A stretch of DNA of 64,000 bases, taken from NCBI GenBank assembly GCA_019322485.1, contig JAHWIK010000015.1:23216-87215 (forward strand), given 5' to 3'. Source of the DNA: Candidatus Woesearchaeota archaeon (GTDB taxonomy: Archaea; Nanobdellota; Nanobdellia; Woesearchaeales; JAHWIC01). Numbering within the stretch: the stretch's first letter is position 1; each line of letters begins with the position of its first letter. Made by a program: the position numbers and the translations under genes. The notes beneath the pieces were generated by a model. The model had not been told where the DNA came from. It ran no database searches and was given only the letters and a program-made list of their open reading frames with translations. Shown here piece by piece: positions 24,485-40,344 of this stretch.

Positions 24485-24838
24485 TTAGTCTTTTGTGATT
24501 AGCTCATCAGCCTCAATATAAGGCTTTGTTCCTGCAAAAGGAATCTCACCATAACGGATTGTCCCCCTTACAACATAATCAACCTCATACTCAAATGTTT
24601 GCTGCGCTACTGCTTTCTTTACATAAAGATAAGGGCCACCGCTTACCTTAGCCCATTCCCGCTTTGCTGTTCCATCTATGATGCCCCTTATCTCAACTTC
24701 CATGCCTTCATACTTTTCAGGATTATCATTTATTGCTTTAATCAATGCACCATCACTTGCTTTTCTTACAATAATCTCATAGCCACCAAACTGGCAGCCG
24801 CATAAAAAAATTAAAAATAAAACTAATAGTTTTTTCAT
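24485..24838 (-). CDS. small lipoprotein-like protein, last gene of the giant-protein operon
   Basis: 'LFLIFLCGCQ' lipobox-like signal. 4-nt overlap with the upstream gene. Confidence 0.5.
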   Translation of the reverse strand: MKKLLVLFLIFLCGCQFGGYEIIVRKASDGALIKAINDNPEKYEGMEVEIRGIIDGTAKREWAKVSGGPYLYVKKAVAQQTFEYEVDYVVRGTIRYGEIPFAGTKPYIEADELITKD

Positions 24839-26016
24839 TTTTTCTTCCTCTTTTTAGGCTTTAGTTTCTTTATCATTATTATCAATGCTGCAGCTATAAT
24901 AGCTAAGGCAACTGCCACATACAACAATGGAGATACCTTTCTTTCTGCTTCGTGCAGCTCTATTGTAAACTCCCTTTCAAAGGTTTTATCTTTATAGTAA
25001 GCCTTTGCCTTTAGTTCATAAGATCCAAGCTCCAGCTCATGCGCTTCCCAATGAAGCCTTACAGAGCTGTTCCTGTTTGGTTCGATATCAATCCTGTTTG
25101 CTTCCATAGCTGCAATTACTGTGCCATTCCTGATAATATCTGCAGTCAGGTTAACATCCTCAAGCTCTTTATTCCAGTTTGACCCTAAGAACATATTTAT
25201 CCTGTTGATTTTATCAACAACAGCAGTTCTTGTTCCTAAGAAAATCAGCACCCCTTCTTCACCAATCCTAAAACTTCCAGTTTCTTCTACTGCTTTTCCG
25301 GAAAACTTAATGATTGATTCTGCATCATACTCACCAGGCTTGAACAGGAACTTCTTTATGGTTAATTGGTTTTCATGACTTTTTCCAGGCTCAATAGTAA
25401 ATGTTGCTTTTGGCAGGGATAGTATCTTCTTCTCTGTATTTCCCAGAATCTTATAACCAAGCACTACATCATGGAATCCATTTACAAGTGCAGCTTTGTA
25501 CAGGCTTGCAACTTTCTCTTTATTCTCATATATGTTAAGGTCATTCTCTATTCCTCCAATTGTTATTGCGCCTTTGTTTTCCATTACTGTTGTAAATTTC
25601 ATAAGATATTGGCTGTCATCAATAACCAAAAGCTCTGTTTTAAGGTATTCCTCAGGATACGGAACAAATAAATTAACCGTATGATGTACTGATGGCTTTG
25701 TTGTTACTGTTCCTGAACCTGCTGGTTCTTCATATACAACTATCTTAGCCTGATGCTCGCCAGGCCCGAAAGGCCCTGATAGGTTAAAGCTGAATTCTTT
25801 TGGGCCTATTACAACCCCTTCACGCGCAATCTCCACGTCAAGCTCACCTTCAACACCAATTGTAATCCTTGTTGGAAGGTTTGATGAAGGTATAACTGTA
25901 AAAACACCTGAATGCTCTTTATTCCCAAAGAAATCTGTCTTTGCGGGCATTGCCCCTAAAGCAAACACAGCGTCTATTGAAAGCACCAATATAATAAATA
26001 AAATCCATTTTTTCAT
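24835..26016 (-). CDS. secreted beta-rich protein with a C-terminal TM anchor and basic tail
   Basis: Signal 'ILFIILVLSIDAVFA'. C-terminal 'LLYVAVALAIIAAALIIMIKKLKPKKRKKK'. 4-nt overlap with the giant gene. Confidence 0.55.
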   Translation of the reverse strand: MKKWILFIILVLSIDAVFALGAMPAKTDFFGNKEHSGVFTVIPSSNLPTRITIGVEGELDVEIAREGVVIGPKEFSFNLSGPFGPGEHQAKIVVYEEPAGSGTVTTKPSVHHTVNLFVPYPEEYLKTELLVIDDSQYLMKFTTVMENKGAITIGGIENDLNIYENKEKVASLYKAALVNGFHDVVLGYKILGNTEKKILSLPKATFTIEPGKSHENQLTIKKFLFKPGEYDAESIIKFSGKAVEETGSFRIGEEGVLIFLGTRTAVVDKINRINMFLGSNWNKELEDVNLTADIIRNGTVIAAMEANRIDIEPNRNSSVRLHWEAHELELGSYELKAKAYYKDKTFEREFTIELHEAERKVSPLLYVAVALAIIAAALIIMIKKLKPKKRKKK

Positions 26017-29000
26017 GTTGTTCTCACCAATATAGTTGAATTCTTCTGCCCCGAGGGCTCAAGCAACGGCACAGTTGCGTTCAAATCAATCTCTGCTGTG
26101 TCTGAGGCATCTTCCCAGTTTAGATTATATATTGCCGGCGTGCTGTTTGAAGGCATTGGAGTTAATGTTGTCGTTGCTGAAGTGAATGAGCCGGATTCAT
26201 TCACGCCTATTGCGAATTGATATGACTCATTTGGATTAGGCACTGTCTCAAACAAGTCAGTTGCATTTATTGATATGTTGACAATTAAATTGCCTACATT
26301 TTCCAATAGGAGCGGCAGTGGGCTGTCATCTTCTGTGGATTCACTAAAGCCAGGTATTACCACCCCAAAGTCAACTACATCCCTTGTCAGGTTTATTGCT
26401 ATGTATGAGCTTAATGTAAAGTTCCATACATCGCTCCATTCTCCTGAGATAATGGAGTGATAAGCCCTTACTCTCCAGAAATATGTCTTGTCAAGCTCGA
26501 GGTCGCTTATTAGTGTGTGGCTGGTTTCATTATTGCTTCCTTCTGATAGATTTCCTCTTGAGTAATCTAATGATGTAAAGATTGGCGAATCATCTATCTC
26601 TATCTCGTATTTTGCAGTTGTTGAGCCATTGTAGGTTGCATTGTACCAAGTGAATGTTGGCCTTAGCTCTGTTGTGGTGTTTCCGCTTTCCGGGCTTTTG
26701 AGGATAACCTTTGACGGCCTGTTGGCTTCTTCTCTTTCACATGCGTCTTTGCATGTGTAGCCATTGTATGTCTGGGTATAATCACAGACCCATATGTTCT
26801 CTTTGCTGTTTCCATTGCTCCAAGGCAGTTCTCCTGATACTGTTCTTGTGTCATTGTCATCTCTTAACTCAACCTCAACAGTATAGTATCCTTCACTCAA
26901 GCCGCTTAAACTGACTGTGCCATTGCACATTCCTGTTGATGCAAGCGGAACACTTCCGAGAGATATCCTGCTGCCAGGGCTGTTCTTTTCTGCATAAACA
27001 ACACAGCCAGAGGCATTAGCAGTAAATCCATAAGTGCTTGTGAAATTAACTGCTACATTCAGTGTTTCTGTTGGCACGTAATAATCCTTTGTTGGGTATG
27101 AAGTACTGCAGTTTGTGTCTATGCAGAAGAATCCTGTTGTTTGTTTTGGCAAGGTTCTTACATCAATGGTCAGGCTTGTGTTTGGACCAATATTGCCGAC
27201 ACCATCAACTGCCCTTGCATAGATTGTATTTAAGCCGTCAGATAATGTGAGGGCATACCTGCAGTCATAAGCTGATGTTTCATTTACCCATCCAGTGCCG
27301 TCATTAAACTGGCAAAGTTCAACGCCGGAATTCCATGTGCCAGAGTCAGTTGCATTTACTCTTACATAAACAGTGTCTGAGGCGCTTAATCTGGTAACTG
27401 TATTGTCTGTTTTTATCATTCTTAGCCTGGAGGTTGTGTAATCATCATCTGCAGGAGTTGTTTTTACAAATACTGGTGCTTGCGGCGGCTCTGTTTCAAG
27501 GATGTACTGCGTAACATCTGCATTTTGCTCTACTCCGCCTATACTTGTTGAGACATAATACGAGAAACTCGAGTTTTGTACAATTGTGTCATTATCAGGG
27601 ACAGTTATCCAGAATGTTAGGTTTAAAATCTGGTTTGGATATGCTCCGCTGTATTCTATAAGGACAGCCTGGTAATGATATCCTGATTGAGCACTGTACT
27701 GCACATTGAAATTACCAGAGTCTGTTCCATAGATTCCAGAGTTTGATGCATTCATCTCATAATCTAATGGCACATAGGTTGCGCTTGCACTTCCAAGATA
27801 AATCTGGATTGTTTTTCCGTTTACATTTGTGGCTGAGTCTGTGAATGTGAATGTAAGGTTTTTTCCTCTCCAATGATATTCTGTGTATGTCAGGTCAGGT
27901 GTTCCGCCGCCCCAGTTTGTGTTTACTGAGTAATCTGGGGGCTCTCCGCCTATGTAGCTGACTGCTGCTGCATCAGAGCATTTTAGCGTGCATGCTGCTA
28001 AACTATTTGTATACGGGGCCAGGCATGAAGCACCTGATGAACAATCTGAGTCTTCGCAGTCAACTGAATTGTCAAAATCATTGTCATAGCTGTCTGTGCA
28101 TGCTGATTCTGTTGTTCTATACCCTGTTCCTGCACTAGCCGAGTTGCAGATTCCTTGGCTTGTAGACCACACACCAACGATTCCATCACAGTCTGAATCC
28201 CTGCAGTCATAAACACCATCATTAAGGCTGGCGTTTATCTCATTAGGGTCATAATTTGTCTTTGAGATGTATTCATCTTGGTATTCATACTCATTGTTTA
28301 AGCCATCCATGCACGAATCTAGCGTTACATTCTCTTCTGGAGGACAGACCCTGCATAATCCTTGATGATAACATCCTGTATCATAACAGTTTGCAAGATT
28401 ATCGCCATCATTATCCATTGAGTAAGCTGTTGTTCCGCTTGAATTATAATCACCGCAAAGAGTATCATCAAAAGGATCAAAGTACATCTCTTCAAATAAT
28501 GCACATAAAATATCTCCTGGGCCCAGCAGGCCATTGCAGTCAGGGTCGCCACAATCTGTTCCTGAAGCATCATTTGTCTCGTATTCTGTTCCATTCCATG
28601 TGTAGGCATCTAGGTCATTGTCTAATGTGTCATTGCAGGTCTGCTCTACTATTGATAATCCTGAGCCGTCATCTGTACAGACATACAGGCCAGATTCCTG
28701 CACAGCATAGCAGTTATAATCATCACAATCTTCACCTGTATTTGCACCGGCATGTGCGCTTCCTGACTCTCCAACATAATAGGTTCCTAGGTCTTGGTCA
28801 TTGTCAACTCCATCAGAACAGTTGTATTCCCATCTTATTGTGCATAAGCCGATATTTCCTGAGTCATTTATGTAAGTGTTATTGCAGTCAGAGTCATAAT
28901 TATTCCATGCACAGTCAATTCCTGCTCCAGCTGCAGTACTTAGATTAATACCATCTGACAAATAATTATCAAGGTCATTGTCAATGCTGTCAAGGCACCA

Positions 29001-32000
29001 GTTTTGTGTGCTGTTGCAGCCAGTTGGTGAGCATGTATAGTTTTCCCGGCCAGGGCAGGCAGAATTGTTATAACAGCTGTAATCATTGCAGTCACCATCT
29101 TGCAGGTAGGTGTTTGCTCCAAAGTGGTATTGATATGATGCATTTGTCCATCCAGGGTTCTGCATCTGGCTGATGTAATAATCCTGGTCATTATCAAAAA
29201 CATCTGTACAGTTTCTTTCAATAATTAATTCACAGTTTTGTCCTGACGGGCCGATAGCTGTATCATTGCAGTCTTGGTCATATCTATAGCTGTCATAAGC
29301 AATAGCATACGGCCAGAATTGGTTTGGAGTGAGACCATATGCATAATAGATGCAGTCTATTCCGCCTGATAGGTTTTCCACTCTGTTTGAATCTAATAAA
29401 TAATCAGTTATGTTGTAGACATACCTGTCTAGGTCATTGTCAACTCCATCAGTGCACAATGATGCTGTTTCTGTTGTAGGGCATGCAGAGTCATTTGCAC
29501 AGTCATAATCATCACAATCATAGCCGCCAGAGGCGCTTGTCCTATTCCCGCCAGGATTGTATGCATTATCTAAGTCATTGTCATAACCATCTGTACAGTT
29601 TATCTCGTGGCCTAGCTCACATTTTCCAGGACCCATATCAACACCATCACAGTCTGCATCAGGGTAGTGGTTTCCATCATAGTTATATCTGCAGTCCATT
29701 CCACCGCCATACTGGTTGTTTGTTGCACTATATTGTGTTCCTGTCCAGCCGGTTATTGTATAATAATCAAGGTCATTATCCTTGTTGTCAGAACAGTTTG
29801 CTCCATCATTTTCCCAATAGTTTGTTACATTGCATGTTGATTGGCAGTCATACTCTCCATGTGCAATGTTGCTTCCACCTGCACCATATTGATAATTTGG
29901 GTTTGTTGTTGAGGCTCCTGTTGAGGTCGTATTGCAGTCAAGTTCCCCATCCTGGTCATTATCAAATCCATCTGAGCAGCTTGTTTCAAAGATTAATTGG
30001 CATGTTCCTGCTGGCAATACAGAACTATTGCAGTCTATATCATACTCTACCATCCTGCAGTCAGCTCCTGCTCCTGGCAAGCCCGAGTAAAAGTCTAGGT
30101 CATTGTCCTTTCCGTCAATGCATGTTATTCCTGACTCATTTATGGGACAGTTTGAATCATTGAAACAATCATATTCTCCATGAGGATAAGTTCCTCCACC
30201 AGAATAGGTTGACCTGGGGTTAGTTGGATTGCTTAAGTACTGGATTACCCCGCCTGTAAAGAATGCTGTTGTGTTGCAGTCAAATGCTCTGTCACGGTCA
30301 TTATCAAACAAGTCATTACATATTGTTTCTACCCCTAATTCGCATGTGCCATTGATTCCTCCAACATTATAGCTGAGCCAGCTTGAGTTTAGGATGTATG
30401 TGTTGTTGCAGTCAGTGTCCCATGTACCTGCATTATAATGGCAGTCTGTATCACCATCATCGTCATTGTCAAAGCCGTCTGTGCAGGAGTTATTTGTTGC
30501 AGCATATTTGCTTTCATTCTGGTAAGCGCATAAAGGATAGGTTCCGTCAGGGTTTGCCGATGTTGAACCAATATAAGCGTCGCAATCAATGTCAATACAG
30601 TCTGTTGTATAATCCAAGTCATTGTCATATGAGTCTGCACAAGATATATCATGTTCATCTCTTACGCCGTCATCTGAAATATTTATGTTAAATTTAAAGT
30701 CATATGCTGAACCATTAAATATCCTGTTCAAGACTAAGCCATACATTCCATAGAAGTTGTTTGTTGTATTCATCATTGCTTTTAGGACATTATCTAATGT
30801 GCTTTGGGTGTAAGGTGTTGGGTCAGAAGGAGGATTTGGGCCAGACTGGGCAATTATTGAGTTAGCACTTGTTGTTTTTCCGCTTAGACCGGTTGTTGCG
30901 GAGTAGTTTAATATCCAGAAATCACCAGGGTTTTCCTGCCATAATGATGTATTGAACTGCCACACCTTGAAATAAGCTGTATAGCCTGTTATTTGCGAGG
31001 TTTGATACAGCCTCATACTAAACAATGCTTCTGGCTGTATCTTGTATGTGTAAGTGACTGCTGTGTTCGATGCTGTTCCAGTGCATAAGTTTGGTGCGCA
31101 TGAAGCATCACAGGTTCCACCGTCTATGCATTGAAGTGACCCATCTAAATCACCTGGGTCATATGGCGGGTCATCTCTCCAGCCAGCTGCTGTTTTGTTG
31201 CAAGTCCATGCAGGAGTGCCCTGCTTGTTTGTATTAGAGCCCCCTACAATATAATATTCTCCGTAGACAATTGAAGCGCAGTCTGAATCCTCACAATCTA
31301 TTTTACCATCTCCATCATCATCTGCATTATTAGCACAGTGCGTCTCCACAACGTCAGGGGTATTCTTTTTCTTTATTGAGAAGTCAACGTCTTTTGCACC
31401 ATAATAATATGATGAGTCTGCGGGATTATAGAAAACACTTGAACAGGTGTTGTTTTCAAGGAAGTAGTTTGAGTTATCTACGCCGGCTGCACAGTTTGCT
31501 GCCCTGGTCACATAACCTACATACCATGCATAGTTGAGGGCAGCTTTACCCTCGTAGAAAGCAAGTTGCACTGTTCCGTTTAATCTTCTGCCAGATGTTA
31601 CAGGTATTGTGCATGTCCTGTGGCATTCTTCACCAACAGGGCATGTTGAATCCTCAGAGTTATTGACATTAGTCACTGTATTGCTTTGGCTTATTGTATA
31701 GGATATAGAGTAATTATTTCCTGCTGTGTTGGTAACTGTTTCTGCTCCATCTGCATAGTTCGAGTCCATGCAGGAGAAATTAGCTTTTAGGTTTTCGATT
31801 ATTCCTTCTCCGATTACTGTCAGATTTATTACTGAACCATCTTCGTAGAACACCCTTCTCCTGTAATTATTTGAGGTATCTGCCACTCTCAACAGGAAGA
31901 ATCCTACTGTTCCTGATGAGCTAGCTCCTCCTGTTATTTCTGTAATAGATGATAACTCTTTTCCATCAGGGATTATGAAGAAGTTTAGTGAACTGACAAG

Positions 32001-32063
32001 TAAGAGGATAATACAAAGTACTAATTTAATAATTTCAGATATCTTTTTTGTTTTATCTTTCAT
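26013..32063 (-). CDS. giant (2016 aa) surface protein with about 15 Cys/Asp/Asn calcium-binding-like repeats and C-terminal Ig/FN3-like domains
   Basis: N-terminal TM/signal. Repeated 'C-x-D-x-x-DND-x-D...DC-x-D-x-DC' units, e.g. CSDGFDNDQDGELDC, CTDGVDNDLDRY, CIDGKDNDLDFY. The C-terminal 'RPTFTWYNA...YFWRVRAY' is FN3-like. Confidence 0.8.
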   Translation of the reverse strand: MKDKTKKISEIIKLVLCIILLLVSSLNFFIIPDGKELSSITEITGGASSSGTVGFFLLRVADTSNNYRRRVFYEDGSVINLTVIGEGIIENLKANFSCMDSNYADGAETVTNTAGNNYSISYTISQSNTVTNVNNSEDSTCPVGEECHRTCTIPVTSGRRLNGTVQLAFYEGKAALNYAWYVGYVTRAANCAAGVDNSNYFLENNTCSSVFYNPADSSYYYGAKDVDFSIKKKNTPDVVETHCANNADDDGDGKIDCEDSDCASIVYGEYYIVGGSNTNKQGTPAWTCNKTAAGWRDDPPYDPGDLDGSLQCIDGGTCDASCAPNLCTGTASNTAVTYTYKIQPEALFSMRLYQTSQITGYTAYFKVWQFNTSLWQENPGDFWILNYSATTGLSGKTTSANSIIAQSGPNPPSDPTPYTQSTLDNVLKAMMNTTNNFYGMYGLVLNRIFNGSAYDFKFNINISDDGVRDEHDISCADSYDNDLDYTTDCIDIDCDAYIGSTSANPDGTYPLCAYQNESKYAATNNSCTDGFDNDDDGDTDCHYNAGTWDTDCNNTYILNSSWLSYNVGGINGTCELGVETICNDLFDNDRDRAFDCNTTAFFTGGVIQYLSNPTNPRSTYSGGGTYPHGEYDCFNDSNCPINESGITCIDGKDNDLDFYSGLPGAGADCRMVEYDIDCNSSVLPAGTCQLIFETSCSDGFDNDQDGELDCNTTSTGASTTNPNYQYGAGGSNIAHGEYDCQSTCNVTNYWENDGANCSDNKDNDLDYYTITGWTGTQYSATNNQYGGGMDCRYNYDGNHYPDADCDGVDMGPGKCELGHEINCTDGYDNDLDNAYNPGGNRTSASGGYDCDDYDCANDSACPTTETASLCTDGVDNDLDRYVYNITDYLLDSNRVENLSGGIDCIYYAYGLTPNQFWPYAIAYDSYRYDQDCNDTAIGPSGQNCELIIERNCTDVFDNDQDYYISQMQNPGWTNASYQYHFGANTYLQDGDCNDYSCYNNSACPGRENYTCSPTGCNSTQNWCLDSIDNDLDNYLSDGINLSTAAGAGIDCAWNNYDSDCNNTYINDSGNIGLCTIRWEYNCSDGVDNDQDLGTYYVGESGSAHAGANTGEDCDDYNCYAVQESGLYVCTDDGSGLSIVEQTCNDTLDNDLDAYTWNGTEYETNDASGTDCGDPDCNGLLGPGDILCALFEEMYFDPFDDTLCGDYNSSGTTAYSMDNDGDNLANCYDTGCYHQGLCRVCPPEENVTLDSCMDGLNNEYEYQDEYISKTNYDPNEINASLNDGVYDCRDSDCDGIVGVWSTSQGICNSASAGTGYRTTESACTDSYDNDFDNSVDCEDSDCSSGASCLAPYTNSLAACTLKCSDAAAVSYIGGEPPDYSVNTNWGGGTPDLTYTEYHWRGKNLTFTFTDSATNVNGKTIQIYLGSASATYVPLDYEMNASNSGIYGTDSGNFNVQYSAQSGYHYQAVLIEYSGAYPNQILNLTFWITVPDNDTIVQNSSFSYYVSTSIGGVEQNADVTQYILETEPPQAPVFVKTTPADDDYTTSRLRMIKTDNTVTRLSASDTVYVRVNATDSGTWNSGVELCQFNDGTGWVNETSAYDCRYALTLSDGLNTIYARAVDGVGNIGPNTSLTIDVRTLPKQTTGFFCIDTNCSTSYPTKDYYVPTETLNVAVNFTSTYGFTANASGCVVYAEKNSPGSRISLGSVPLASTGMCNGTVSLSGLSEGYYTVEVELRDDNDTRTVSGELPWSNGNSKENIWVCDYTQTYNGYTCKDACEREEANRPSKVILKSPESGNTTTELRPTFTWYNATYNGSTTAKYEIEIDDSPIFTSLDYSRGNLSEGSNNETSHTLISDLELDKTYFWRVRAYHSIISGEWSDVWNFTLSSYIAINLTRDVVDFGVVIPGFSESTEDDSPLPLLLENVGNLIVNISINATDLFETVPNPNESYQFAIGVNESGSFTSATTTLTPMPSNSTPAIYNLNWEDASDTAEIDLNATVPLLEPSGQKNSTILVRTT

Positions 32064-32212
32064 TATTCTATTAACACCACTTTTACTTTTTTGTTAGCCC
32101 AGTGTTTAGGAACGTAGATTTGAGCACCGTTGCCGCTGTGTTTTGCGGTCTTCTCAATAACCTCATAACCTTCCATTTCCATTTGAATCGGCTTTCTCTT
32201 TAGGCGTTTCAT
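32063..32212 (-). CDS. 49-aa AbrB/SpoVT-like (DUF2080-like) mini-protein, copy 1
   Basis: My own translation, below the ORF-track cutoff: MKRLKRKPIQMEMEGYEVIEKTAKHSGNGAQIYVPKHWANKKVKVVLIE. Its stop TAA shares 1 nt with the giant gene's ATG (TAATG). Confidence 0.55.
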   Translation of the reverse strand: MKRLKRKPIQMEMEGYEVIEKTAKHSGNGAQIYVPKHWANKKVKVVLIE

Positions 32213-32352
32213 TATTCTATTAACACCACCTTGACTTTTTTGTTAGCCCAGTGTTTAGGAACGTAGATTTGAGCACCGTTGCCGCTGTGTTTTGCAGTCT
32301 TCTCAACTACCTCATGCCCTTCTATTTTCATCTGAATTGGCTTACTTTTCAT
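32212..32352 (-). CDS. 46-aa AbrB/SpoVT-like (DUF2080-like) mini-protein, copy 2
   Basis: My own translation: MKSKPIQMKIEGHEVVEKTAKHSGNGAQIYVPKHWANKKVKVVLIE. It makes a TAATG junction with copy 1. The C-terminal 30 aa are identical to copy 1. Confidence 0.55.
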   Translation of the reverse strand: MKSKPIQMKIEGHEVVEKTAKHSGNGAQIYVPKHWANKKVKVVLIE

Positions 32353-32385
32353 GTAGCTACAATGTAGCTACATCACTTTATAAAG
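32353..32385 (-). promoter_or_regulatory. TATA box plus a double 8-bp palindrome (GTAGCTAC x2) abutting the mini-gene start codon
   Basis: The minus strand reads CTTTATAAAG-TGAT-GTAGCTAC-ATT-GTAGCTAC-ATG. The TATA box is about 25 nt upstream of the ATG, which implies a leaderless transcript. Confidence 0.45.
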
Positions 32386-32436: not shown

Positions 32437-32715
32437 TTACTGAATATCCTCAATCCTAATTATATGATATCCAAACTGAGTCTTTACGGGGCCGACAATG
32501 TCTCCTTTCTTTGCATTGAAGCAGGCATTCTCAAACTCTTTTGCCATTTGACCTCTTTTAAACCATCCAAGATTTCCTCCCTTTTTTCTTGAAGGGCACA
32601 TTGATTTCTCTTTAGCAACCTCTGCAAAGTCCTTTCCATGAGTCACATCATAAGAAACAACAAGAGCTTCCTGCTCTGTTTTAACTAAGATATGCGATGC
32701 ATTGACTTTTTTCAT
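32437..32715 (-). CDS. parvulin-type peptidyl-prolyl cis-trans isomerase
   Basis: 'ASHILVKTEQEA', 'GGNLGWFKRGQMAKEFE' and 'GPVKTQFGYHII'. Confidence 0.85.
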   Translation of the reverse strand: MKKVNASHILVKTEQEALVVSYDVTHGKDFAEVAKEKSMCPSRKKGGNLGWFKRGQMAKEFENACFNAKKGDIVGPVKTQFGYHIIRIEDIQ

Positions 32716-32729
32716 AAAACACCCCTGAT

Positions 32730-33452
32730 TTATTCAACATAAACCTTTTCCTTTCCTAGATTCTTAAATGGAATCTCACCAAATCTGCAATTTCTGCAGG
32801 TTGCATCCAAATCAACCCAGTGGTCCATTGATTTATAGCTTTTCAGGGCATCTGGAAGATAAGCCTGGACATAAACATGCCTTGGAATGAAAACTAACCT
32901 TGTGTTTACACCAATTGCTTCTAAGAGAGTTGCTAATAGAACAGCAGCATCATCGCAGTCACCACCCTGAACAGAAAGAGATTCTTTGGCTGTCTTAACA
33001 TACTCAAACTCATTTGGGTCAGAGACATAATTGAAATTATCACGAATAAAATAATAGAGGGCTTTTGCATGGCATACGCGATTAGTAGGGCAGCCCATAA
33101 CTGAAACCCTGTCAGCAGTCTGCTTGATTAAAGGGTCTGTTGGGTCTATTAACTCCAAGAAATCGTATTTGTTGGTCACATTATGTTTTGTAAGGTTTAA
33201 TGAGAATTCTGGAACAACCTCGCTGATTGTTGGAATATAATTAGGTGCAGGATCAATCTTTATAGAATAAGAAGGAACCAGCCATAGCACAACTAATAAT
33301 AACAGAAATATTGCCATAATCCATTTTATAGGGCCTCTCCACCATGGCTCTTGCTCAATATCCTCATGAACTTCGTGTTCTTCTTCCATATTGATTGTTT
33401 TTTCTTCTATGTTTATATTGTTTTTGTTTGAGGAAAGCTTTATAAATCGCAT
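32730..33452 (-). CDS. membrane-anchored transglutaminase-like (papain-fold) domain protein
   Basis: One TM segment. 'QGGDCDDAAVLLATLLEAIGVNTRLV..PRHVYV' followed by 'DLDAT', giving a Cys-His-Asp arrangement. Confidence 0.65.
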   Translation of the reverse strand: MRFIKLSSNKNNINIEEKTINMEEEHEVHEDIEQEPWWRGPIKWIMAIFLLLLVVLWLVPSYSIKIDPAPNYIPTISEVVPEFSLNLTKHNVTNKYDFLELIDPTDPLIKQTADRVSVMGCPTNRVCHAKALYYFIRDNFNYVSDPNEFEYVKTAKESLSVQGGDCDDAAVLLATLLEAIGVNTRLVFIPRHVYVQAYLPDALKSYKSMDHWVDLDATCRNCRFGEIPFKNLGKEKVYVE

Positions 33453-33996: not shown

Positions 33997-35889
33997 ATGG
34001 TTAAAGAGGAGTTAGATAGAAGTCACTTTCTTGATTTAGTCAGTAGTCCGAAGGATTTGAGGCTGTTGAATAAGCAGCAGTTAGATATGCTTGCTGAGGA
34101 ATTAAGAAGGCTAATAATTGAAACTGTAAGCAAGACAGGCGGCCACTTAGCGTCCAGCCTTGGTGTTATTGAATTAACTATTGCTTTGCATTATGTTTTT
34201 GACTCACCAAATGACAAGATAGTATGGGATGTTGGACATCAGGCTTATGCACATAAGCTGTTAACAGGAAGAAAAAATAAGTTCCATACCTTAAGGCAGC
34301 ACAAGGGCATAGCTGGTTTTCCAAAATCAAAGGAGAGCCCTCACGATGCCTTTGATACTGGACACAGCTCAACAGCAATATCAGCAGCTTTAGGAATAGC
34401 AGCTGCTCGCGATTTAAAGCATGAAAAAAACAAGGTGATAGCTGTTATTGGAGACGGAGCTTTAACTGGCGGAATGTCTTTTGAAGCCTTAAATCATGCT
34501 GGCTCATTAAAGAAAGACCTCATAGTAATCCTTAATGATAATGAGATGTCAATAAGCAAGAATGTAGGTGCTTTATCCTCTTATCTTTCAAAGCTGGTAT
34601 CAAAGCCTGGTTATGTCGACAGAAGAAAGAAAGTAGAAAGGATTTTAAGGGGGATACCTGGCCTGAGAAGGCAGGCTGCTAAGGTTTTTGGAATCGAGGA
34701 TACAATAAGGGCTTTAGCAGCTACAACTCCTGGCCTGATATTCAGGGAGCTTGGTTTTAGGTATTTTGGACCTGTTGATGGCCATAATATCGAGCAGATG
34801 ATAAAAACATTAGAGAACATAGAACAGCTTAAAGGTCCTATATTGCTTCATGTCATAACAAAAAAAGGGAAAGGCTATAGCTATGCAGAAGCTGACAGGA
34901 CAAGGTTTCATGGCATTGCGCCATTCAACATAGAGAATGGTGAAAAGAAGCACAAGAGCAGCGTTACATACACAACAGCATTCTCAAGATGTTTGACAAA
35001 GCTTGCAAAGCAGGACAAAAGGGTAGTTGCAATAACAGCAGCAATGAAGCCTGGAACAGGATTAGACCAGTTTGCAGGAATGTTTCCAGACAGGTTATTT
35101 GACGTCGGCATAGCAGAGCAGCATGCAGTTACATTTGCAGCTGGCTTGGCTAAGAACGGCTATAAGCCGGTATGCGCGATTTATTCTACTTTCCTGCAAA
35201 GGGCTTATGACCAGATTGTGCACGATGTTTGTTTGCAGAACCTGCCTGTTGTCTTTGCAATTGATAGAGCTGGCTTGGTCGGAGAGGACGGACCAACACA
35301 TCATGGAAGTTTTGATTTATCTTATCTGAGGCATATACCAAACATGACTGTAATGGCTCCAAAGGACGAGAATGAACTGGGGCATATGCTAAAAACAGCT
35401 TTAGAGATTGACGGGCCGGTTGCAGTAAGATACCCAAGAGGTACGGGCTTGGGGGTTGCAATACAGAACCCATACCACCCAATAGAATTAGGAAAAGCAG
35501 AAGTAATGCAGAAAGGAAAAGATTTGGCAATATTAGCAGTTGGTTCTTGCGTTGATATGGCGAATAAGGCTGCTGAGAAACTGGGGAAGAATAAAATAAA
35601 TGCAACCGTTGTTAATGTAAGGTTTGTAAAGCCTCTGGACGAGAAACTAATACTGAACCTAGCAAAGAAACACAGGAAACTGATTACTATAGAGGAGAAT
35701 GCATTAGATGGCGGTTTTGGTTCTGGTGTGCTGGAATTGTTGGAGCAGTATAACACCAAGGCAACGGTAAAAAGAATTGGAATACCTGATAAATTTGTAG
35801 AGCACGGTTCAATGTCAATCTTAAGAGAAAAAATTGGATTAACTGAGGATAATATAGTGAAGGAAGCGAAGTCGTTGATGGCAAAATGA
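33997..35889 (+). CDS. dxs: 1-deoxy-D-xylulose-5-phosphate synthase
   Basis: 'GGHLASSLGVIELTIALHYVF', 'DVGHQAYAHKLLTGR', 'GDGALTGGMSFEALNHAG' and 'DGPTHHG'. Confidence 0.95.
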   Translation: MVKEELDRSHFLDLVSSPKDLRLLNKQQLDMLAEELRRLIIETVSKTGGHLASSLGVIELTIALHYVFDSPNDKIVWDVGHQAYAHKLLTGRKNKFHTLRQHKGIAGFPKSKESPHDAFDTGHSSTAISAALGIAAARDLKHEKNKVIAVIGDGALTGGMSFEALNHAGSLKKDLIVILNDNEMSISKNVGALSSYLSKLVSKPGYVDRRKKVERILRGIPGLRRQAAKVFGIEDTIRALAATTPGLIFRELGFRYFGPVDGHNIEQMIKTLENIEQLKGPILLHVITKKGKGYSYAEADRTRFHGIAPFNIENGEKKHKSSVTYTTAFSRCLTKLAKQDKRVVAITAAMKPGTGLDQFAGMFPDRLFDVGIAEQHAVTFAAGLAKNGYKPVCAIYSTFLQRAYDQIVHDVCLQNLPVVFAIDRAGLVGEDGPTHHGSFDLSYLRHIPNMTVMAPKDENELGHMLKTALEIDGPVAVRYPRGTGLGVAIQNPYHPIELGKAEVMQKGKDLAILAVGSCVDMANKAAEKLGKNKINATVVNVRFVKPLDEKLILNLAKKHRKLITIEENALDGGFGSGVLELLEQYNTKATVKRIGIPDKFVEHGSMSILREKIGLTEDNIVKEAKSLMAK

Positions 35890-36923
35890 GAAGCAAAACA
35901 AAAGAAATCAGGATTGGAAAACTGAAGATTGGCGGAGATAATCCTATTGCAATACAGTCAATGACTAATACTGATACAAAAGACGAGGAAGCAACAATAA
36001 AACAGATTCATGAGCTAGAGGAGAATGGCTGCGAGATAGTTAGGGTTTCTGTTCCTGACAAGGAATCGTTGCTTTCATTAAGAGCAATAAAAGAAAACAT
36101 AAGCATTCCATTGGTTGCTGATATTCATTTTGACCATAAATTAGCTGTAGAAGCTGCAAGGATTGCAGACAAGATAAGGATTAACCCAGGAAATATTGGG
36201 AAAGAGAACCTGAAAGAGGTTGTTGATGCTGTTATGGATTCAAATATTCCGATGAGGGTGGGGATTAACCTAGGTTCTTTGGAAAAAGACATTGAGAAGA
36301 AGTTTGGCCTTACTGCATTAGGTATGGTTGAGAGCGCAATGAGGTCTGTGAAAGAGATAGAAAGGCTTGGCTTCTACAATATGGTTATTTCATTAAAGGC
36401 TTCTGATGTGTTAAAGACAATAGAAGCTTACAGATTGTTTTCACAGAGGTCACAATACCCTTTACACGTCGGTATAACCGAGTCTGGGAGCAGTTTTACA
36501 GGAACTGTTAATTCATCAGTTGGAATTGGAGCTTTATTATTGCAGGGAATTGGAGATACAATCCGCGTTTCATTATCAGCTGAGCCTGTTGAAGAGGTTA
36601 AAGTTGGCTGGCAGATTCTGAAAGCACTTAGGCTTAGGAAGAGGGGGATTGACATAACAAGCTGCCCAACGTGCGCAAGAAAAGGCATAGATGTTATCAA
36701 TATTGTCAAGGAGCTTGAGCAAAGAACCTCAAAAATGAACAAGCCTTTGCATATTGCAGTTATGGGCTGCGGTGTTAATGGTCCAGGAGAAGCTAAAGAA
36801 GCTGATATTGGTGTTGTCGGCGGAAAAGGAAATGTTTTGCTTTACAAGAATGGAATGATGGTCGGCAATATTGAGGGAGATGTTCTTGAAAGGTTGATGA
36901 AGGAGATAGAGAATTCAAAATGA
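35886..36923 (+). CDS. ispG: 4-hydroxy-3-methylbut-2-en-1-yl diphosphate synthase
   Basis: 'IGGDNPIAIQSMTNT', 'RINPGNIG', 'SCPTCAR' and 'AVMGCGVNGPGEA'. ATGA overlap with dxs. Confidence 0.9.
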   Translation: MRSKTKEIRIGKLKIGGDNPIAIQSMTNTDTKDEEATIKQIHELEENGCEIVRVSVPDKESLLSLRAIKENISIPLVADIHFDHKLAVEAARIADKIRINPGNIGKENLKEVVDAVMDSNIPMRVGINLGSLEKDIEKKFGLTALGMVESAMRSVKEIERLGFYNMVISLKASDVLKTIEAYRLFSQRSQYPLHVGITESGSSFTGTVNSSVGIGALLLQGIGDTIRVSLSAEPVEEVKVGWQILKALRLRKRGIDITSCPTCARKGIDVINIVKELEQRTSKMNKPLHIAVMGCGVNGPGEAKEADIGVVGGKGNVLLYKNGMMVGNIEGDVLERLMKEIENSK

Positions 36924-38305
36924 GCTGGAAATTAATCACATTAAAACAGTATCCGATGTTCTCGAGATGGTGGATACATGAAGCGTTTCTCCACGATATG
37001 AAAGATACTTTAGGTATGAATTTTAAAATGTACAAATCGCTCTATAGCGGGACTTATGCTGATAGTGATGAGGTTGAAAAGTTAAGGTCTATGTTAATAT
37101 CTAAACTTGAAAAAGATATTGATTCAATTAGGAAATTATGTGAGAATTGGAAACATGATTGTGATGAGCTTATTAGATTTACAAAAGAATTAGAAAAATC
37201 GGACTTCTCAAAAAACTCTGATGAGGAATTAGTTAATTTATCAGAGAATTGCATTAAAAAATTAAGAAGAAGCGCTTCATATATTTATCTGTCAGTTGTT
37301 TTGGATGAATATTTTCAGAATTGGCTGAATAAAATACTTGAAGCTAAGGTTCAGGACCAGAATGAGAGGACAAAATACTTCCAAATTCTTACATCTCCAA
37401 CAAAAAATACTAAATTAATTGACGCTAAGAAGGTATTAATTGAGATTTCTAAAGTTGTTAAAGAGAAAGGTCTTGAGGGAGCAGAGGACTTAATCAAAGA
37501 TTATGTATCTAAATTTAAATGGCTTGGATATGATACTGGAATTGGAAGTGATTTAACTATAGAACAAACAAAGGATAAGATTTCTAATATTCTTGAGCAA
37601 AAACAGCACGACTCTGATGTTAAAAATAGGGATGAGGTCTTGTCTGAGTTGGATCTCAATGAAAAAGATAAAGAATTACTTGACTTGATGGACGAACTTA
37701 TTTTCCTAAGGACTTATAGGGCTGAAAGCAATATGGTTGCAGGAGCTGATATAAGGCCTATTCTTGAAGAACTTGCAAAAAGAGCCAATACAAATTATGA
37801 TAATCTAGTTCAATTAACCATTGATGAAATAAAAGACTCAATAAAGTCAAAAAAAGTAGACTTGAAGAAGATTGAGGAGAGAAAGAATAAGTATGGCTTG
37901 TTAATGGTCGATGGAAAGAATACAATCTACAGTGGAGATGAAGTGGATAAAGTAGAGGAAAAGGTTGAAGTTCCTGAAGGATTGACAGAGTTAAAAGGAT
38001 TAGTAGCACACCATGGAAATAAGAGGGGCCATGTTAAGATTGTTTTGAGGCATAAAGACTTTGATAAGATTGAATTTGGAGATATTTTGGTAACAAAGAT
38101 GACTAATCCTGATTTTATAGTTGTTTTAGAACAGTGTTCTGGAATAATTACAGACATTGGAGGGATAACCTCTCATGCAGCGATTGTTGCACGAGAACTA
38201 AACAAGCCATGCATTACAGGAACTCAATATGCTACAAAAGTCTTGAAAGATGGTGACTTAGTTGAGCTTGATACAGATAAAGGCATTGTAAAGATAATAA
38301 AATGA
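36920..38305 (+). CDS. uncharacterised protein with a C-terminal PEP-utilising-enzyme mobile (swivel phospho-His) domain
   Basis: C-terminal 'GIITDIGGITSHAAIVARELNKPCITG'. The N-terminal ~360 aa are helical and K/E-rich, with no ATP-grasp motif I can see. ATGA overlaps on both sides. Confidence 0.7.
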   Translation: MSWKLITLKQYPMFSRWWIHEAFLHDMKDTLGMNFKMYKSLYSGTYADSDEVEKLRSMLISKLEKDIDSIRKLCENWKHDCDELIRFTKELEKSDFSKNSDEELVNLSENCIKKLRRSASYIYLSVVLDEYFQNWLNKILEAKVQDQNERTKYFQILTSPTKNTKLIDAKKVLIEISKVVKEKGLEGAEDLIKDYVSKFKWLGYDTGIGSDLTIEQTKDKISNILEQKQHDSDVKNRDEVLSELDLNEKDKELLDLMDELIFLRTYRAESNMVAGADIRPILEELAKRANTNYDNLVQLTIDEIKDSIKSKKVDLKKIEERKNKYGLLMVDGKNTIYSGDEVDKVEEKVEVPEGLTELKGLVAHHGNKRGHVKIVLRHKDFDKIEFGDILVTKMTNPDFIVVLEQCSGIITDIGGITSHAAIVARELNKPCITGTQYATKVLKDGDLVELDTDKGIVKIIK

Positions 38306-39453
38306 ACATAGCAATCATAACAGCAGCTGGAAAAGGAACAAGGATGAATGAAAAAGTCAATAAAATATTGTTATCTTTAGTCGATAAATCAATAATTGAA
38401 GAAACAATCGAGGTTTTTGAGGCGTGTAAAGATATTGATGAGATAATTATTGTTGGAAACAGCGATGATATTGAATCATTAAACAAAATCAATGAAAAAA
38501 ATAATTATAAAAAAATTAAAAAAATCATTGAAGGCGGAGAACAACGGCAGGATTCAGTGTTTAATGGAATAAAATCCATTGAAAATGCGAGTAATGATGA
38601 TATTTTATTGATTCATAATGGTGCAAACCCCCTTGTAGACGAGAAAACGATTCTTGAATGTATTAAAGAAGCAAAGGAGCATGGGGCAGCTGTTGCTGCA
38701 ATGCCTGCAAAAGATACAATAAAACAGGTTGAGAATGGTTTTGTTGCTAAAACATTGGATAGAAAGCAGCTCTGGCAGATGCAGACACCGCAAACAATCC
38801 AGTTTGGGCTTGCGAAAGAGGCTTTTGAAAAGGCATTTGCTGATAATTTCTATGGAACTGATGATGTTGGGCTTGTAGAAAGGCTTGGAAAAAAGGTTAA
38901 GATTGTTGAGTGCAATACTGAGAACGTAAAAATCACAACAAAGAATGATTTAGAACAAGCAAGACTCTTGCTTAATGCTTCTGTTGTTGGAATCGGACAG
39001 GATTCCCACAAATTTACCGACGAGAAAAAGGATTTAGTTTTGGGTGGTGTAGTAATTCCAAATGAGCAGGGCTTAGAAGCAAACTCTGATGGTGATGTCA
39101 TCCTGCATGCCTTGTTTAATGCTTTAAGCCAGGCAGCTGGAGAAAAATCATTGGGAAATTATGCAGATTCAATGTGTGAGAATGGAATAAAAGACAGCAG
39201 AGAGTATCTAAGAGTGATTTTAGACATAATCAACAAGAAAAATTACAAGATAAATAATGTTGGCTTTATGATAGAAGCAAAAAAGCCAAGGCTAGGGGCT
39301 AATGAAGACAGAATAAAAGAGAATATTGCAAATTTATTGGGAATAACTAAAGATAAAGTTGGAATAACAGCAACCTCAGGAGAGGAATTAACTCCATTTG
39401 GCCAGGGCAAGGCAATACAGGTATTTTCAGTTGCAAGCTTAACAAGAAAATAA
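38302..39453 (+). CDS. ispDF: bifunctional IspD/IspF (MEP cytidylyltransferase / MEcPP synthase)
   Basis: N-terminal 'IITAAGKGTRM' is IspD-like. C-terminal 'GIGQDSHKF...SDGDVILHAL' is IspF-like. Confidence 0.9.
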   Translation: MNIAIITAAGKGTRMNEKVNKILLSLVDKSIIEETIEVFEACKDIDEIIIVGNSDDIESLNKINEKNNYKKIKKIIEGGEQRQDSVFNGIKSIENASNDDILLIHNGANPLVDEKTILECIKEAKEHGAAVAAMPAKDTIKQVENGFVAKTLDRKQLWQMQTPQTIQFGLAKEAFEKAFADNFYGTDDVGLVERLGKKVKIVECNTENVKITTKNDLEQARLLLNASVVGIGQDSHKFTDEKKDLVLGGVVIPNEQGLEANSDGDVILHALFNALSQAAGEKSLGNYADSMCENGIKDSREYLRVILDIINKKNYKINNVGFMIEAKKPRLGANEDRIKENIANLLGITKDKVGITATSGEELTPFGQGKAIQVFSVASLTRK

Positions 39454-39474
39454 TGAAAATCAAAGATTTTCAGT

Positions 39475-40344
39475 ATGTCAAAAACCAAGGTTTTTAACAT
39501 GATCCAGCTAAAAGCACACGCAAAGATAAACCTGACCTTAGATGTACTTGCAAGGCTGGATGACGGCTATCATCGGATAGAATCTATAAAACAGCAGGTT
39601 GGTTTGCACGATAAAATCTCATTAGGGCCATTGGATGATATAAAGGTAATCTGCAGCCATCCTAACATAACCACAAAAGAAAATCTTGTCTTTAAAACAG
39701 CATTGTTGCTAAAAAATGAATTTAATGTAGCAGAGGGAGCGAAGATAACAATAGAAAAAAATATTCCATTAGCTGCTGGCTTGGCTGGAGGCTCATCAGA
39801 CGCAGCAGCAACCCTGGTAGGATTAAACAAGCTTTGGAAACTTGAGCTTGATGAGCAGGAACTGACAAAATTAGCTGCAGAGATTGGAATGGATGTTCCT
39901 TTTTCTGTTGTTGGCGGTTCTTGTTTTGCAGAGGGCAAAGGCACTAAACTAAGCAGGATAGAGCTGCCTGAGATGCATGTGCTGTTAATCAACCCTGGTT
40001 TTGAAGTCTCTACAAGAACAGCTTACCAAAGCCTTGACTTGTCAAGAACAGGAAAGGCAATGGCAACAAAGAAACTATTGGAAGTAAGGAACATGGGTGT
40101 GAGAGAAATATCAAAGGTCATGCATAATGACTTTGAAGCTGTGGTGCTGGGGAAGCATTCTATTCTGAAAGAGATAAAGGGCAAATTAATGGAGAATAAT
40201 GCCTTGAATGCAATAGTATCTGGCTCAGGGCCAACTGTTTTTGGCTTGTTTGAGGATGAATCAACTATAAGCAAGGCTTACGAATCTCTTAAAGAAACTT
40301 ATCCATTTGTATTCATGACAAAAACAGTAGCGAGGAAAGAATGA
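39475..40344 (+). CDS. ispE: 4-diphosphocytidyl-2-C-methyl-D-erythritol kinase
   Basis: 'KAHAKINLTLDV', 'PLAAGLAGGSSDAAATL' and 'SGSGPTVFG' (GHMP kinase motifs). Confidence 0.9.
   Translation: MSKTKVFNMIQLKAHAKINLTLDVLARLDDGYHRIESIKQQVGLHDKISLGPLDDIKVICSHPNITTKENLVFKTALLLKNEFNVAEGAKITIEKNIPLAAGLAGGSSDAAATLVGLNKLWKLELDEQELTKLAAEIGMDVPFSVVGGSCFAEGKGTKLSRIELPEMHVLLINPGFEVSTRTAYQSLDLSRTGKAMATKKLLEVRNMGVREISKVMHNDFEAVVLGKHSILKEIKGKLMENNALNAIVSGSGPTVFGLFEDESTISKAYESLKETYPFVFMTKTVARKE

Follow-up and report, generated by a model that had tools for sequence, protein, structure and literature searches.

A giant acidic repeat protein of a Woesearchaeote and the membrane-anchored partner linked to its C-terminal tail

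Little is known of how DPANN archaea construct their surfaces and attach to their hosts, and the large surface genes of these organisms mostly carry the label 'hypothetical'. One such gene, KY360_02710, lies in the 64-kb stretch of DNA analyzed here (the window; contig JAHWIK010000015.1) and raises the question of what its many repeats are and how so large a protein might be held on the cell. The gene occupies positions 26013..32063 on the minus strand, starts with ATG and encodes 2016 amino acids without an internal stop. These codons make up 9.5% of the window, as expected from an earlier account that a model made from the letters alone (the sequence-only reading), which had assigned about 10% of the window to one giant open reading frame (ORF) of this length. 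The product is 100% identical to the GenBank 'hypothetical protein KY360_02710 [Candidatus Woesearchaeota archaeon]', encoded on a 92.6-kb contig, and the NCBI naming agrees with the DPANN-type organism, tiny and probably dependent on a host, that the same account had proposed. The reading that we favor, with moderate confidence, is that the giant protein forms a glycoprotein stalk stiffened by Ca2+, which docks without a covalent bond on a partner that is anchored in the membrane and encoded by the adjoining gene.

The gene itself is well supported. That it might be a pseudogene, or a mis-assembled or collapsed repeat region, is a generic risk for repeat-rich genes in metagenome-assembled genomes, and we found nothing specific in its favor. 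The reading frame is uninterrupted, and Tandem Repeats Finder did not find a tandem repeat in the DNA of the giant gene, which indicates that the repeat units are old and diverged rather than a product of assembly collapse. Three full-length orthologs (P0002, P0003 and P0004; 2045-2053 aa, 57-62% identity) from three independent assemblies of other samples are likewise uninterrupted, co-linear with the giant protein and equipped with 88-89 cysteines each. No frameshift, stop or repeat collapse of the kind about which the sequence-only reading had cautioned was therefore seen, and we regard an artefact as extremely improbable and, on these sequence comparisons, effectively excluded. Of the 89 cysteines, 87 are the same in the giant protein and all three orthologs, and so are 84 of 90 core module positions, where the figure for all positions is 43.5%; this is a signature of purifying selection on the residues that the model set out below needs. 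The protein is also strongly acidic (290 Asp + Glu against 86 Lys + Arg), with 10.0% Asp, 9.5% Asn and 4.4% Cys (89 residues). Its family is very narrow: queries with the whole protein and with its C-terminal 657 residues returned a handful of relatives (4-5 in 5.8 billion proteins), and a scan of 185,579 species genomes that included the partner returned one locus only.

Most of the cysteines belong to a string of acidic modules in the center of the protein. The core pattern C.[DN]..[DN][ND][DE].[DE] occurs 15 times, against a mean of 0.017 and a maximum of 1 in 5000 shuffles, and was not found elsewhere in the six frames of the 64-kb window. Together with one degenerate unit at residue 1203 these matches make 16 modules with exactly four cysteines each, slightly more than the ∼15 Cys/Asp/Asn repeats that had been noted before in the central ∼1100 residues. 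With first cysteines (C1) at residues 243, 475, 527, 582, 648, 696, 757, 823, 870, 952, 1023, 1082, 1143, 1203, 1251 and 1322, the array spans residues 243-1347 and is broken by a ∼180-residue insert without modules (residues 289-470; nt 30654..31199, on the minus strand like all parts of the gene). This insert contains a four-cysteine cluster (C312-C327) and is also found in P0006, a distant homolog that likewise has modules (locus L003, 8001-13982). Module 1 covers residues 240-288 (CANNADDDGDGKIDCEDSDC...C288; nt 31200..31346), and modules 2-16, delimited by the pattern, the cysteine count and the ligand mapping given below, cover residues 471-1347 (nt 28023..30653). Each follows the formula C1-x-D-x2-D-N-D-x-D-(3..29 aa)-D-C2-(4..36 aa)-D-x-D-C3-(3..21 aa)-C4 and varies in length at two fixed points, before D-C2 and from C2 to D-x-D-C3. 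Modules 3-12 form five tandem A+B super-repeats (residues 523-1142; nt 28638-30497) of 109-153 residues each, which share 39-48% identity with the first copy, and the B-subtype modules always carry Glu at -3 and end in C-x-N-x-S-x-C-P. Between residues 240 and 1365, 72 of the 73 cysteines are invariant in the orthologs. P0006 additionally has C-terminal repeats of the form 'C.DG..N..E.G.DCGGPCP.C'.

These modules are members of NCBIfam NF033662 (acid_disulf_rpt), the 'acidic double-disulfide repeat', as judged from profile matches to nine stretches of the giant protein (86.3 bits against a cutoff of 41, E 7.7e-25), the best of which is residues 240-264 in module 1. Family and giant share the four cysteines and the Asp-rich unit of ∼30 residues, but the model recognizes only 9 of the 16 units. 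Most units here carry long insertions, and the arrangement of ten units as five two-module super-repeats is a further difference. A literature search did not find a paper describing the NF033662 family; a 2026 'CysRRep' preprint, considered as a match for the modules, was dropped on account of a different cysteine pattern.

The only solved relative of the module is the C-rich domain of teneurins, an extracellular domain of an adhesion molecule. The full-length giant protein matched the teneurin-4 C-rich domain weakly in the PDB (7PLP, E 0.011), and a 30-column profile built from 14 canonical modules of the giant, its orthologs and P0006 matched 13 distinct sequences there, all of them teneurins (Ten-2, -3 and -4 and fly Ten-m), with 7plp_A as the best match (E 4.4e-8). 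No thrombospondin, LDLR-A or MopE chain appeared among the matches of this profile at E<=10. In the 1.5-Å structure of the teneurin domain (Meijer et al. 2022, PMC9058538; PDB 7PLP), three octahedral Ca2+ ions are bound by the side chains of E835, D840, D843, N844, D845, D847, D851, D854 and D856 together with three backbone carbonyls, and disulfides pair C1-C3, C2-C5 and C4-C6. Its authors liken sites I and II to thrombospondin type-3 repeats and site III to LDLR-A, and state that the whole domain has no counterpart among known folds (PMC9058538).

The motif E-x2-C-x-D-x2-D-N-D-x-D-x3-D-C-x-D-x-D-C is identical in the teneurin domain and the archaeal module. When the nine side-chain ligands were mapped onto the modules (E-3, D+2, D+5, N+6, D+7, D+9, the D before C2 and the D-x-D before C3), 128 of the 144 positions were found to be kept, with all nine present in six modules and at least seven in 15 of the 16 (eight in module 1). 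The two systems differ in architecture. Teneurins have a single copy with six cysteines and three disulfides, set between EGF repeats and a TTR domain and YD shell, whereas the archaeal unit has four cysteines and occurs in 16 copies alongside Ig/FN3 domains (immunoglobulin-like and fibronectin type III-like) and a C-terminal tail; no EGF, TTR, NHL or YD/RHS Pfam match was found in the giant protein. The archaeal unit is without the CC doublet and the sixth cysteine, and hence without the C4-C6 pair, and would therefore retain just C1-C3 and C2-C4 bonds in each module, a pairing that is drawn by analogy with teneurins and fits the family name. The repeat family is thus already curated and has a solved eukaryotic relative, and the giant is a new and unusually elaborate member of it. 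As far as could be found, the literature has made no connection between teneurin C-rich domains and a tandem-repeat family of archaea, and the paper on bacterial teneurins makes no mention of C-rich relatives.

The sequence-only reading had compared the repeats to thrombospondin type-3 or MopE-type metal-binding motifs. As a statement of family membership this did not survive: Pfam TSP_3 (PF02412) and PF11617 gave no match to the whole giant at E<=1, nor, at E<=10, to the 896-aa repeat region or to six modules taken singly, for which Pfam returned only EF-hand noise. What stands is a second-order resemblance that comes by way of teneurins, because Meijer et al. (PMC9058538) draw the thrombospondin comparison and Tucker et al. 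2012 (PMC3278476) liken the teneurin core to a diatom glucanase sequence and note that this core 'aligns well' with the MopE motif. Thrombospondin type-3 repeats are an Asp-rich, disulfide-stapled Ca2+ 'wire' whose geometry the authors of the teneurin structure see in two of its three sites, and they would share with the modules the role of a calcium-rigidified extracellular spacer, although their cysteine spacing differs and neither Pfam nor the PDB profile search connects the two. A similar functional parallel can be drawn with the giant Ca2+-dependent bacterial adhesins of the SiiE and RTX ice-binding type, which are likewise long, acidic, calcium-stiffened repeat stalks with Ig-like domains; here, however, the unit is a ∼30-residue disulfide knot rather than a BIg domain, there is no type I secretion signal, and the host is an archaeon. 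The MopE comparison would also allow a copper-scavenging protein, and the acidity of the giant is in keeping with one. The missing matches to PF11617 and to any MopE chain, an all-oxygen ligand set (Asp/Glu/Asn) that suits Ca2+ and the presence of only 15 histidines in 2016 residues make this reading highly improbable, and the sequence evidence effectively excludes it.

We then consider where such a protein would reside. The only hydrophobic segment that a Kyte-Doolittle scan picks out in the giant is at residues 11-31 (nt 31971..32033), a signal peptide or signal-anchor, and all orthologs have a comparable N-terminal segment. The protein contains 71 N-x-S/T sequons where 34.2 +/- 5.2 are expected, an approximately two-fold enrichment of the kind typical of archaeal surface glycoproteins. 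It is thus probably extracellular and heavily N-glycosylated, in agreement with the secreted protein that had been proposed. Neither the N-terminal region at residues 36-239 (nt 31347..31958), in which 42% of positions are invariant among the four orthologs and which could form a distal tip, nor the insert at residues 289-470 has a Pfam or NCBIfam match. AlphaFold2 (AF2) was unusable for residues 32-760, with a mean predicted local distance difference test score (pLDDT) of 31 from a five-sequence alignment. For residues 1240-2016 the mean pLDDT was 40, with the modules and the tail below 50 and a better stretch at ∼1555-1775 (nt 26739-27401; pLDDT 65-82) within the beta-rich middle region (residues 1348-1782; nt 26718..28022). 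This stretch is modeled as two or three beta-sandwiches of tandem Ig/FN3-like type and matched FN3 tandems and SiiE BIg domains in a Foldseek search of the PDB, matches that we trust only as 'tandem FN3/Ig' because AF2 confidence was low. Together with sub-threshold Pfam matches to Pur_ac_phosph_N, Ig_Rha78A_N and fn3 at residues 1798-1883, it bears out the C-terminal FN3/Ig-like modules that had been predicted.

It is the last ∼235 residues of the giant that point to how it might be held. This tail consists of an FN3-like first half (residues 1783-1886; nt 26406..26717; 'TYFWRVRAY'), which resembles contactin FN3 in the PDB, and a terminal beta domain of ∼130 residues (residues 1887-2016; nt 26016..26405), TERM, with the signature PLLLENxGN...NxxW.DxSD...G.KNST and no Pfam, NCBIfam or PDB match. 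The tail recurs on otherwise unrelated proteins, in which its homologs share 32-41% identity (E 3e-41 to 2e-22) and always end 0-7 residues from the stop codon. At locus L006 it terminates a cargo of >2179 residues with 0.3% Cys and no module, whose C-terminus is 41% identical over 232 residues to residues 1783-2011 of the giant (E 3e-41), and the same tail ends a Cys-poor giant of >2243 residues (L009), a 1191-aa protein (L008) and a 409-aa protein (L007), each followed by a homolog of the partner. A hidden Markov model (HMM) of the tail located it at further C-termini. One belongs to a protein of >621 residues in L010, encoded immediately before KY360_03885, which is a second partner paralog in the window's own genome. 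Another belongs to a 3273-aa S8 peptidase (subtilisin) in L011 (14319-21185; GCA_964556395.1), so that proteases may be displayed by the same route. The last ∼130 residues alone end proteins of 189-226 residues that stand beside partner paralogs in L006, L007 and L008. These small tail proteins of L006 and L007 begin, like P0006, with a similar N-terminus, 'M.(I/M)SN(K/N).(I/L)A(V/L)L...', which may mark a dedicated signal-peptide class.

The partner is a 393-residue protein (24835..26016, minus strand) named 'DUF3324 domain-containing protein' at NCBI, the ORF of which overlaps the giant gene by 4 nt. It has a signal peptide, beta-sandwiches, a transmembrane (TM) helix at residues 359-387 and a poly-lysine cytoplasmic end (KKLKPKKRKKK), and its ectodomain probably comprises three sandwiches at residues ∼25-130, ∼140-250 and ∼260-358. 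The third is recognized by Pfam PF11797 (DUF3324/WxLIP_HBD) at 40.7 bits against a cutoff of 28.9 (residues 263-358), as it is in 17 of 31 partner family members, and a profile of the family matched the Enterococcus faecium WxLIP1 structure (EfmWxLIP1; 9i1y) weakly in this domain (E 0.45), with domains 1 and 2 weakly matching structural-genomics Ig or CARDB-like proteins in the PDB. DUF916/PGBD was found in none of the 31 family members and not in the N-terminal half of the partner at E<=10, and the NQIDKxxxYFDLK motif is absent. Counted as cluster representatives, the family has 1086 members at E<=1e-3 and 241 at E<=1e-10; almost all are 370-420 residues long and matched over both halves. Its members with organism names are all Woesearchaeota or Nanoarchaeota.

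Several comparisons connect the tail with this partner. The triplet of giant, ∼400-aa and ∼120-aa genes is kept with its 4-nt overlaps in L001 (the same as L005; Woesearchaeota SI073_bin58) and L002 (Saanich Inlet), where the flanks are unrelated; the partner is 38-42% identical there, and the third gene 36-47%. Beside more distant partners (22-29% identity), the preceding gene has only its last ∼235 residues in common with the giant. A further scan, of metagenomes, took as its seeds peptide patterns of the FN3 half alone and so carried a built-in control. It yielded 80 loci, 77 with the FN3-like part, seven with the terminal domain and five with a partner homolog. All five partner loci belong to the seven that have a terminal domain, and in each the partner gene follows directly, in the same orientation; the other two are a contig that ends at the tail and the anomalous locus L018. 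None of the 73 FN3-only loci (0/73) has a partner homolog. The hypergeometric probability of this association is ∼9e-7, or ∼1e-5 if the look-alike loci L015 and L016 are counted once. Seen from the other side, a gene with the tail lies just upstream of the partner gene in 15 of 16 cases, separated from it by one small ORF at the most; L011 is the exception. Supportive but weak evidence of co-inheritance comes from a mirror-tree comparison of terminal domains with their adjacent partners (r = 0.52, reached by 0 of 5000 permutations) and from swapping partners within genomes that have two pairs (32 ways), where the true pairing ranks second. The terminal domain is thus shown by gene content to be locked genetically to a membrane-anchored Ig-domain partner, and the suggestion of the sequence-only reading that the downstream TM-anchored protein may anchor the giant gains strong comparative support from this gene pairing. 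The partner of L015, at 243 residues, is reduced to a signal peptide, domain 1 and the TM helix, and this minimal form suggests that docking would take place on domain 1.

At the anomalous locus L018 (Ga0209541_10099991, 2-2691) the last ∼35 residues of the tail ('NAFNEFFMEINLTVPA[DS]EPAGAKYSN[LI]TFTVISNE') end three successive reading frames, with PIN/antitoxin-like genes on the opposite strand between them, an arrangement that may reflect cassette duplication or recombination.

Put together, these observations suggest the following working model for the Ca2+-stiffened stalk. The giant would be exported as an N-glycosylated, acidic surface protein of the Woesearchaeote. Each module would be locked by two disulfides and bind up to three Ca2+ ions through the E/D-x2-C-x-D-x2-D-N-D-x-D...D-C...D-x-D-C ligands, ∼45 ions in total, and extracellular calcium would thereby fold and stiffen the 16-module chain of ∼1100 residues into an extended stalk, with the variable module loops and the glycans forming its surface. 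The FN3-like and terminal beta domains of the tail would dock non-covalently on the partner ectodomain, probably on domain 1, while the partner would be held in the membrane of the producing cell by its C-terminal helix and the poly-lysine cytoplasmic stop. The N-terminal ∼450 residues, which have no database match, would then project outward as a distal working tip, for which adhesion is the most plausible function. What we infer from the comparisons above covers the binding of Ca2+, the pairing of the cysteines, the docking itself, this orientation and adhesion, and the role in cell-cell attachment that had been proposed for the giant is an extension of the same reasoning.

Several points weigh against this model. 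Gene adjacency and co-inheritance are not proof of binding, and the AF2 model of the tail (pLDDT below 50) gives neither the fold of the terminal domain nor a docking interface. Module 14 keeps only 3 of the 9 ligand positions. Woesearchaeota are mostly anaerobes, so that the formation of ∼40 extracellular disulfides is not self-evident in this lineage. In L011 the partner does not adjoin the tail-bearing protease and lies 3 kb away in convergent orientation. Finally, the N-terminal hydrophobic stretch of ∼21 residues may stay in the membrane, in which case the giant would need no separate anchor, and P0006, which has the modules, possesses its own C-terminal TM helix and a long cytoplasmic tail and is without both the C-terminal tail of the giant and a partner gene.

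The last two points form the basis of a different reading, in which an N-terminal signal-anchor that stays uncleaved holds the giant, and the tail and partner serve otherwise, as a distal co-receptor, as a periplasmic-type chaperone or assembly factor, or as a second attachment that makes the molecule an arch. It draws on the length of the hydrophobic segment, which has no obvious A-x-A cleavage site in any of the four orthologs, and on the self-anchored homolog P0006. The partner also begins its first strand with the motif 'ALG(I/V)xPAK', which may resemble the first strands of Ig-like pilus chaperones. The wider set of tail-partner pairs fits this reading less well. Tail-only proteins of 189-226 residues also pair with partners, which suits display or anchoring better than a co-receptor at the tip; the TM helix and poly-lysine tail fix the partner in the producer's own membrane; and what the minimal partner retains is precisely domain 1 and the TM helix. 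We therefore consider self-anchoring by the N-terminus unlikely and retain docking on the partner as the preferred explanation.

A description of the tail-partner pairing, or of archaeal DUF3324 proteins, was not found in the literature search, and the pairing appears to be a variant of two-component surface anchoring that has not been described before. The WxL/WxLIP system is organized by the same logic. Firmicute WxL clusters encode proteins of small and large size with a C-terminal domain in common, next to a protein of DUF916-DUF3324-TM architecture (Hassan et al. 2023, PMC10599100). Both systems combine a shared C-terminal domain with variable N-terminal passengers and an Ig-like TM protein of ∼350-400 residues alongside, L006, L007, L008 and L014 hold both large and small cargos, and the ectodomain of the partner ends in a genuine DUF3324/WxLIP_HBD domain, after which comes the C-terminal TM helix. 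The likeness is one of organization only. The archaeal partner is without DUF916/PGBD and seems to have three sandwiches rather than two, and its named relatives are archaeal throughout. In the tail of the giant, no WxL Pfam domain was found at E<=10, and a different conserved tail stands in that position. Archaea are not known to have a peptidoglycan to which WxL could bind.

A second parallel is offered by the Sulfolobales surface layer (S-layer), in which SlaA (1424 aa) is accompanied by SlaB, a protein of 475 aa with three beta-sandwich domains, a TM helix at 448-470 and a long coiled-coil (Gambelli et al. 2024, PMC10903991). The giant and its partner could accordingly be pictured as an S-layer-like two-component envelope, with the giant as outer canopy and the 393-residue protein as membrane stalk. 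The two pairs are indeed built alike: first comes a large protein that is soluble, glycosylated and rich in beta structure, then a beta-sandwich protein of ∼400 residues with a C-terminal TM anchor. We nevertheless rate such an envelope as improbable here. There is no sequence similarity to the Sla proteins, and the partner is without the SlaB-like coiled-coil, only ∼10 residues separating its last domain from the TM helix. Several tail-partner pairs occur per genome and locus, and their cargos are extremely varied, including an S8 protease and proteins of ∼200 residues. The narrowness of the giant's own family (4-5 relatives, one species-genome locus) is not expected of a main wall protein. 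Judged by sequence, the pair belongs to neither the WxL/WxLIP nor the SlaA/SlaB system.

A broader proposal, which is possible if somewhat short of an even prospect, is that DPANN archaea (Woesearchaeota/Nanoarchaeota) have a dedicated modular display system in which a C-terminal tag of ∼130 residues sorts diverse cargos and docks them on cognate Ig-domain partners, as an archaeal counterpart, and possibly a relative, of WxL/WxLIP, and that the giant is a calcium-stiffened fibre for host attachment within it. If this is correct, one display tag, usually placed after an FN3-like domain, would serve Ca-module giants, Cys-poor giants, S8 proteases and proteins of ∼200 residues. The combination of the C-terminal tag with an adjacent TM partner offers a testable rule with which to list the displayed surface proteome of these organisms. 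The locus also nominates a putative calcium-dependent stalk protein as a candidate for attachment. The teneurin C-rich domain would in turn belong to a prokaryotic tandem-repeat family, a tie that bears on the debated and partly horizontal origin of teneurins, and the modules would offer biophysics natural tandem arrays of a minimal three-calcium disulfide knot.

The third gene of the cassette appears to be a clade-specific addition. It encodes a small secreted protein of 117 residues (24485..24838, minus strand) with a lipobox-like LCGC and overlaps the partner gene by 4 nt. It is kept after the partner only in L001 and L002, the lipobox cysteine being lost in L002, and no relative of it was found in other cassettes; the ∼135-aa genes that follow partners elsewhere show no link to it. 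The proposal that this lipoprotein helps to anchor or mature the giant is accordingly not supported as it stood, and we assign the protein no role. Other small components recur in further tail-partner clusters and not in the window, namely proteins of 70-90 residues with one N-terminal TM helix (L006 7778-7996, L007 4007-4279, L008 6034-6249 and L009 6730-6975) and proteins of ∼180 residues with an N-terminal TM helix and the FN3-like half only (L008 4250-4780 and L014 6690-7235).

Upstream of the giant lie two tandem paralogous mini-ORFs of 46 and 49 residues ('...KHSGNGAQIYVPKHWANKKVKVVLIE'; 32063..32352, minus strand), which are weakly DUF2080/AbrB-like (E 0.03 and 0.008, below the Pfam cutoff). 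They overlap as TAATG, the stop of the first with the ATG of the second and the stop of the second with the ATG of the giant. Two exact copies of a 10-bp palindrome, TGTAGCTACA, abut the first mini-ORF (32352-32361 and 32363-32372), and a TATA-like box, TTTATAAA, is found at ∼32378-32385, upstream of the mini-ORFs. The number of palindromes alone is not significant, since 26 of 100 shuffles reach three matches, and their tandem placement is the only argument for them; the mini-ORF and palindrome arrangement is not conserved at the orthologous loci. From their layout, the mini-ORFs, the palindromes and the box could together be a small autoregulated leader of the operon, or the mini-ORFs could encode regulators.

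Just upstream of this operon (32437-33452, minus strand) are genes for a transglutaminase-like protein and a 92-residue parvulin peptidyl-prolyl isomerase (PPIase). These and a lipase-like neighbor are not conserved beside the orthologs, and for that reason we do not count them as parts of the system. A SurA-like PPIase precedes the partner in L011. Elsewhere in the window, 33997-42246 on the plus strand holds a bacterial-type methylerythritol phosphate (MEP) isoprenoid operon with DXS, IspG/GcpE, a 461-residue protein with a PEP-utilizer domain, a fused IspD-IspF, a GHMP kinase (IspE-like), IspH/LytB and a polyprenyl synthase, in which no DXR was recognized. Such an operon is unusual, as archaea normally use the mevalonate route. 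On the minus strand, a 660-residue ORF (15432-17414) has ribosomal P0/L10 domains only in its first ∼180 residues and carries ∼480 extra residues, and a 717-residue surface-type protein (54977-57130) has Big_9, cadherin-like, He_PIG and PKD domains.

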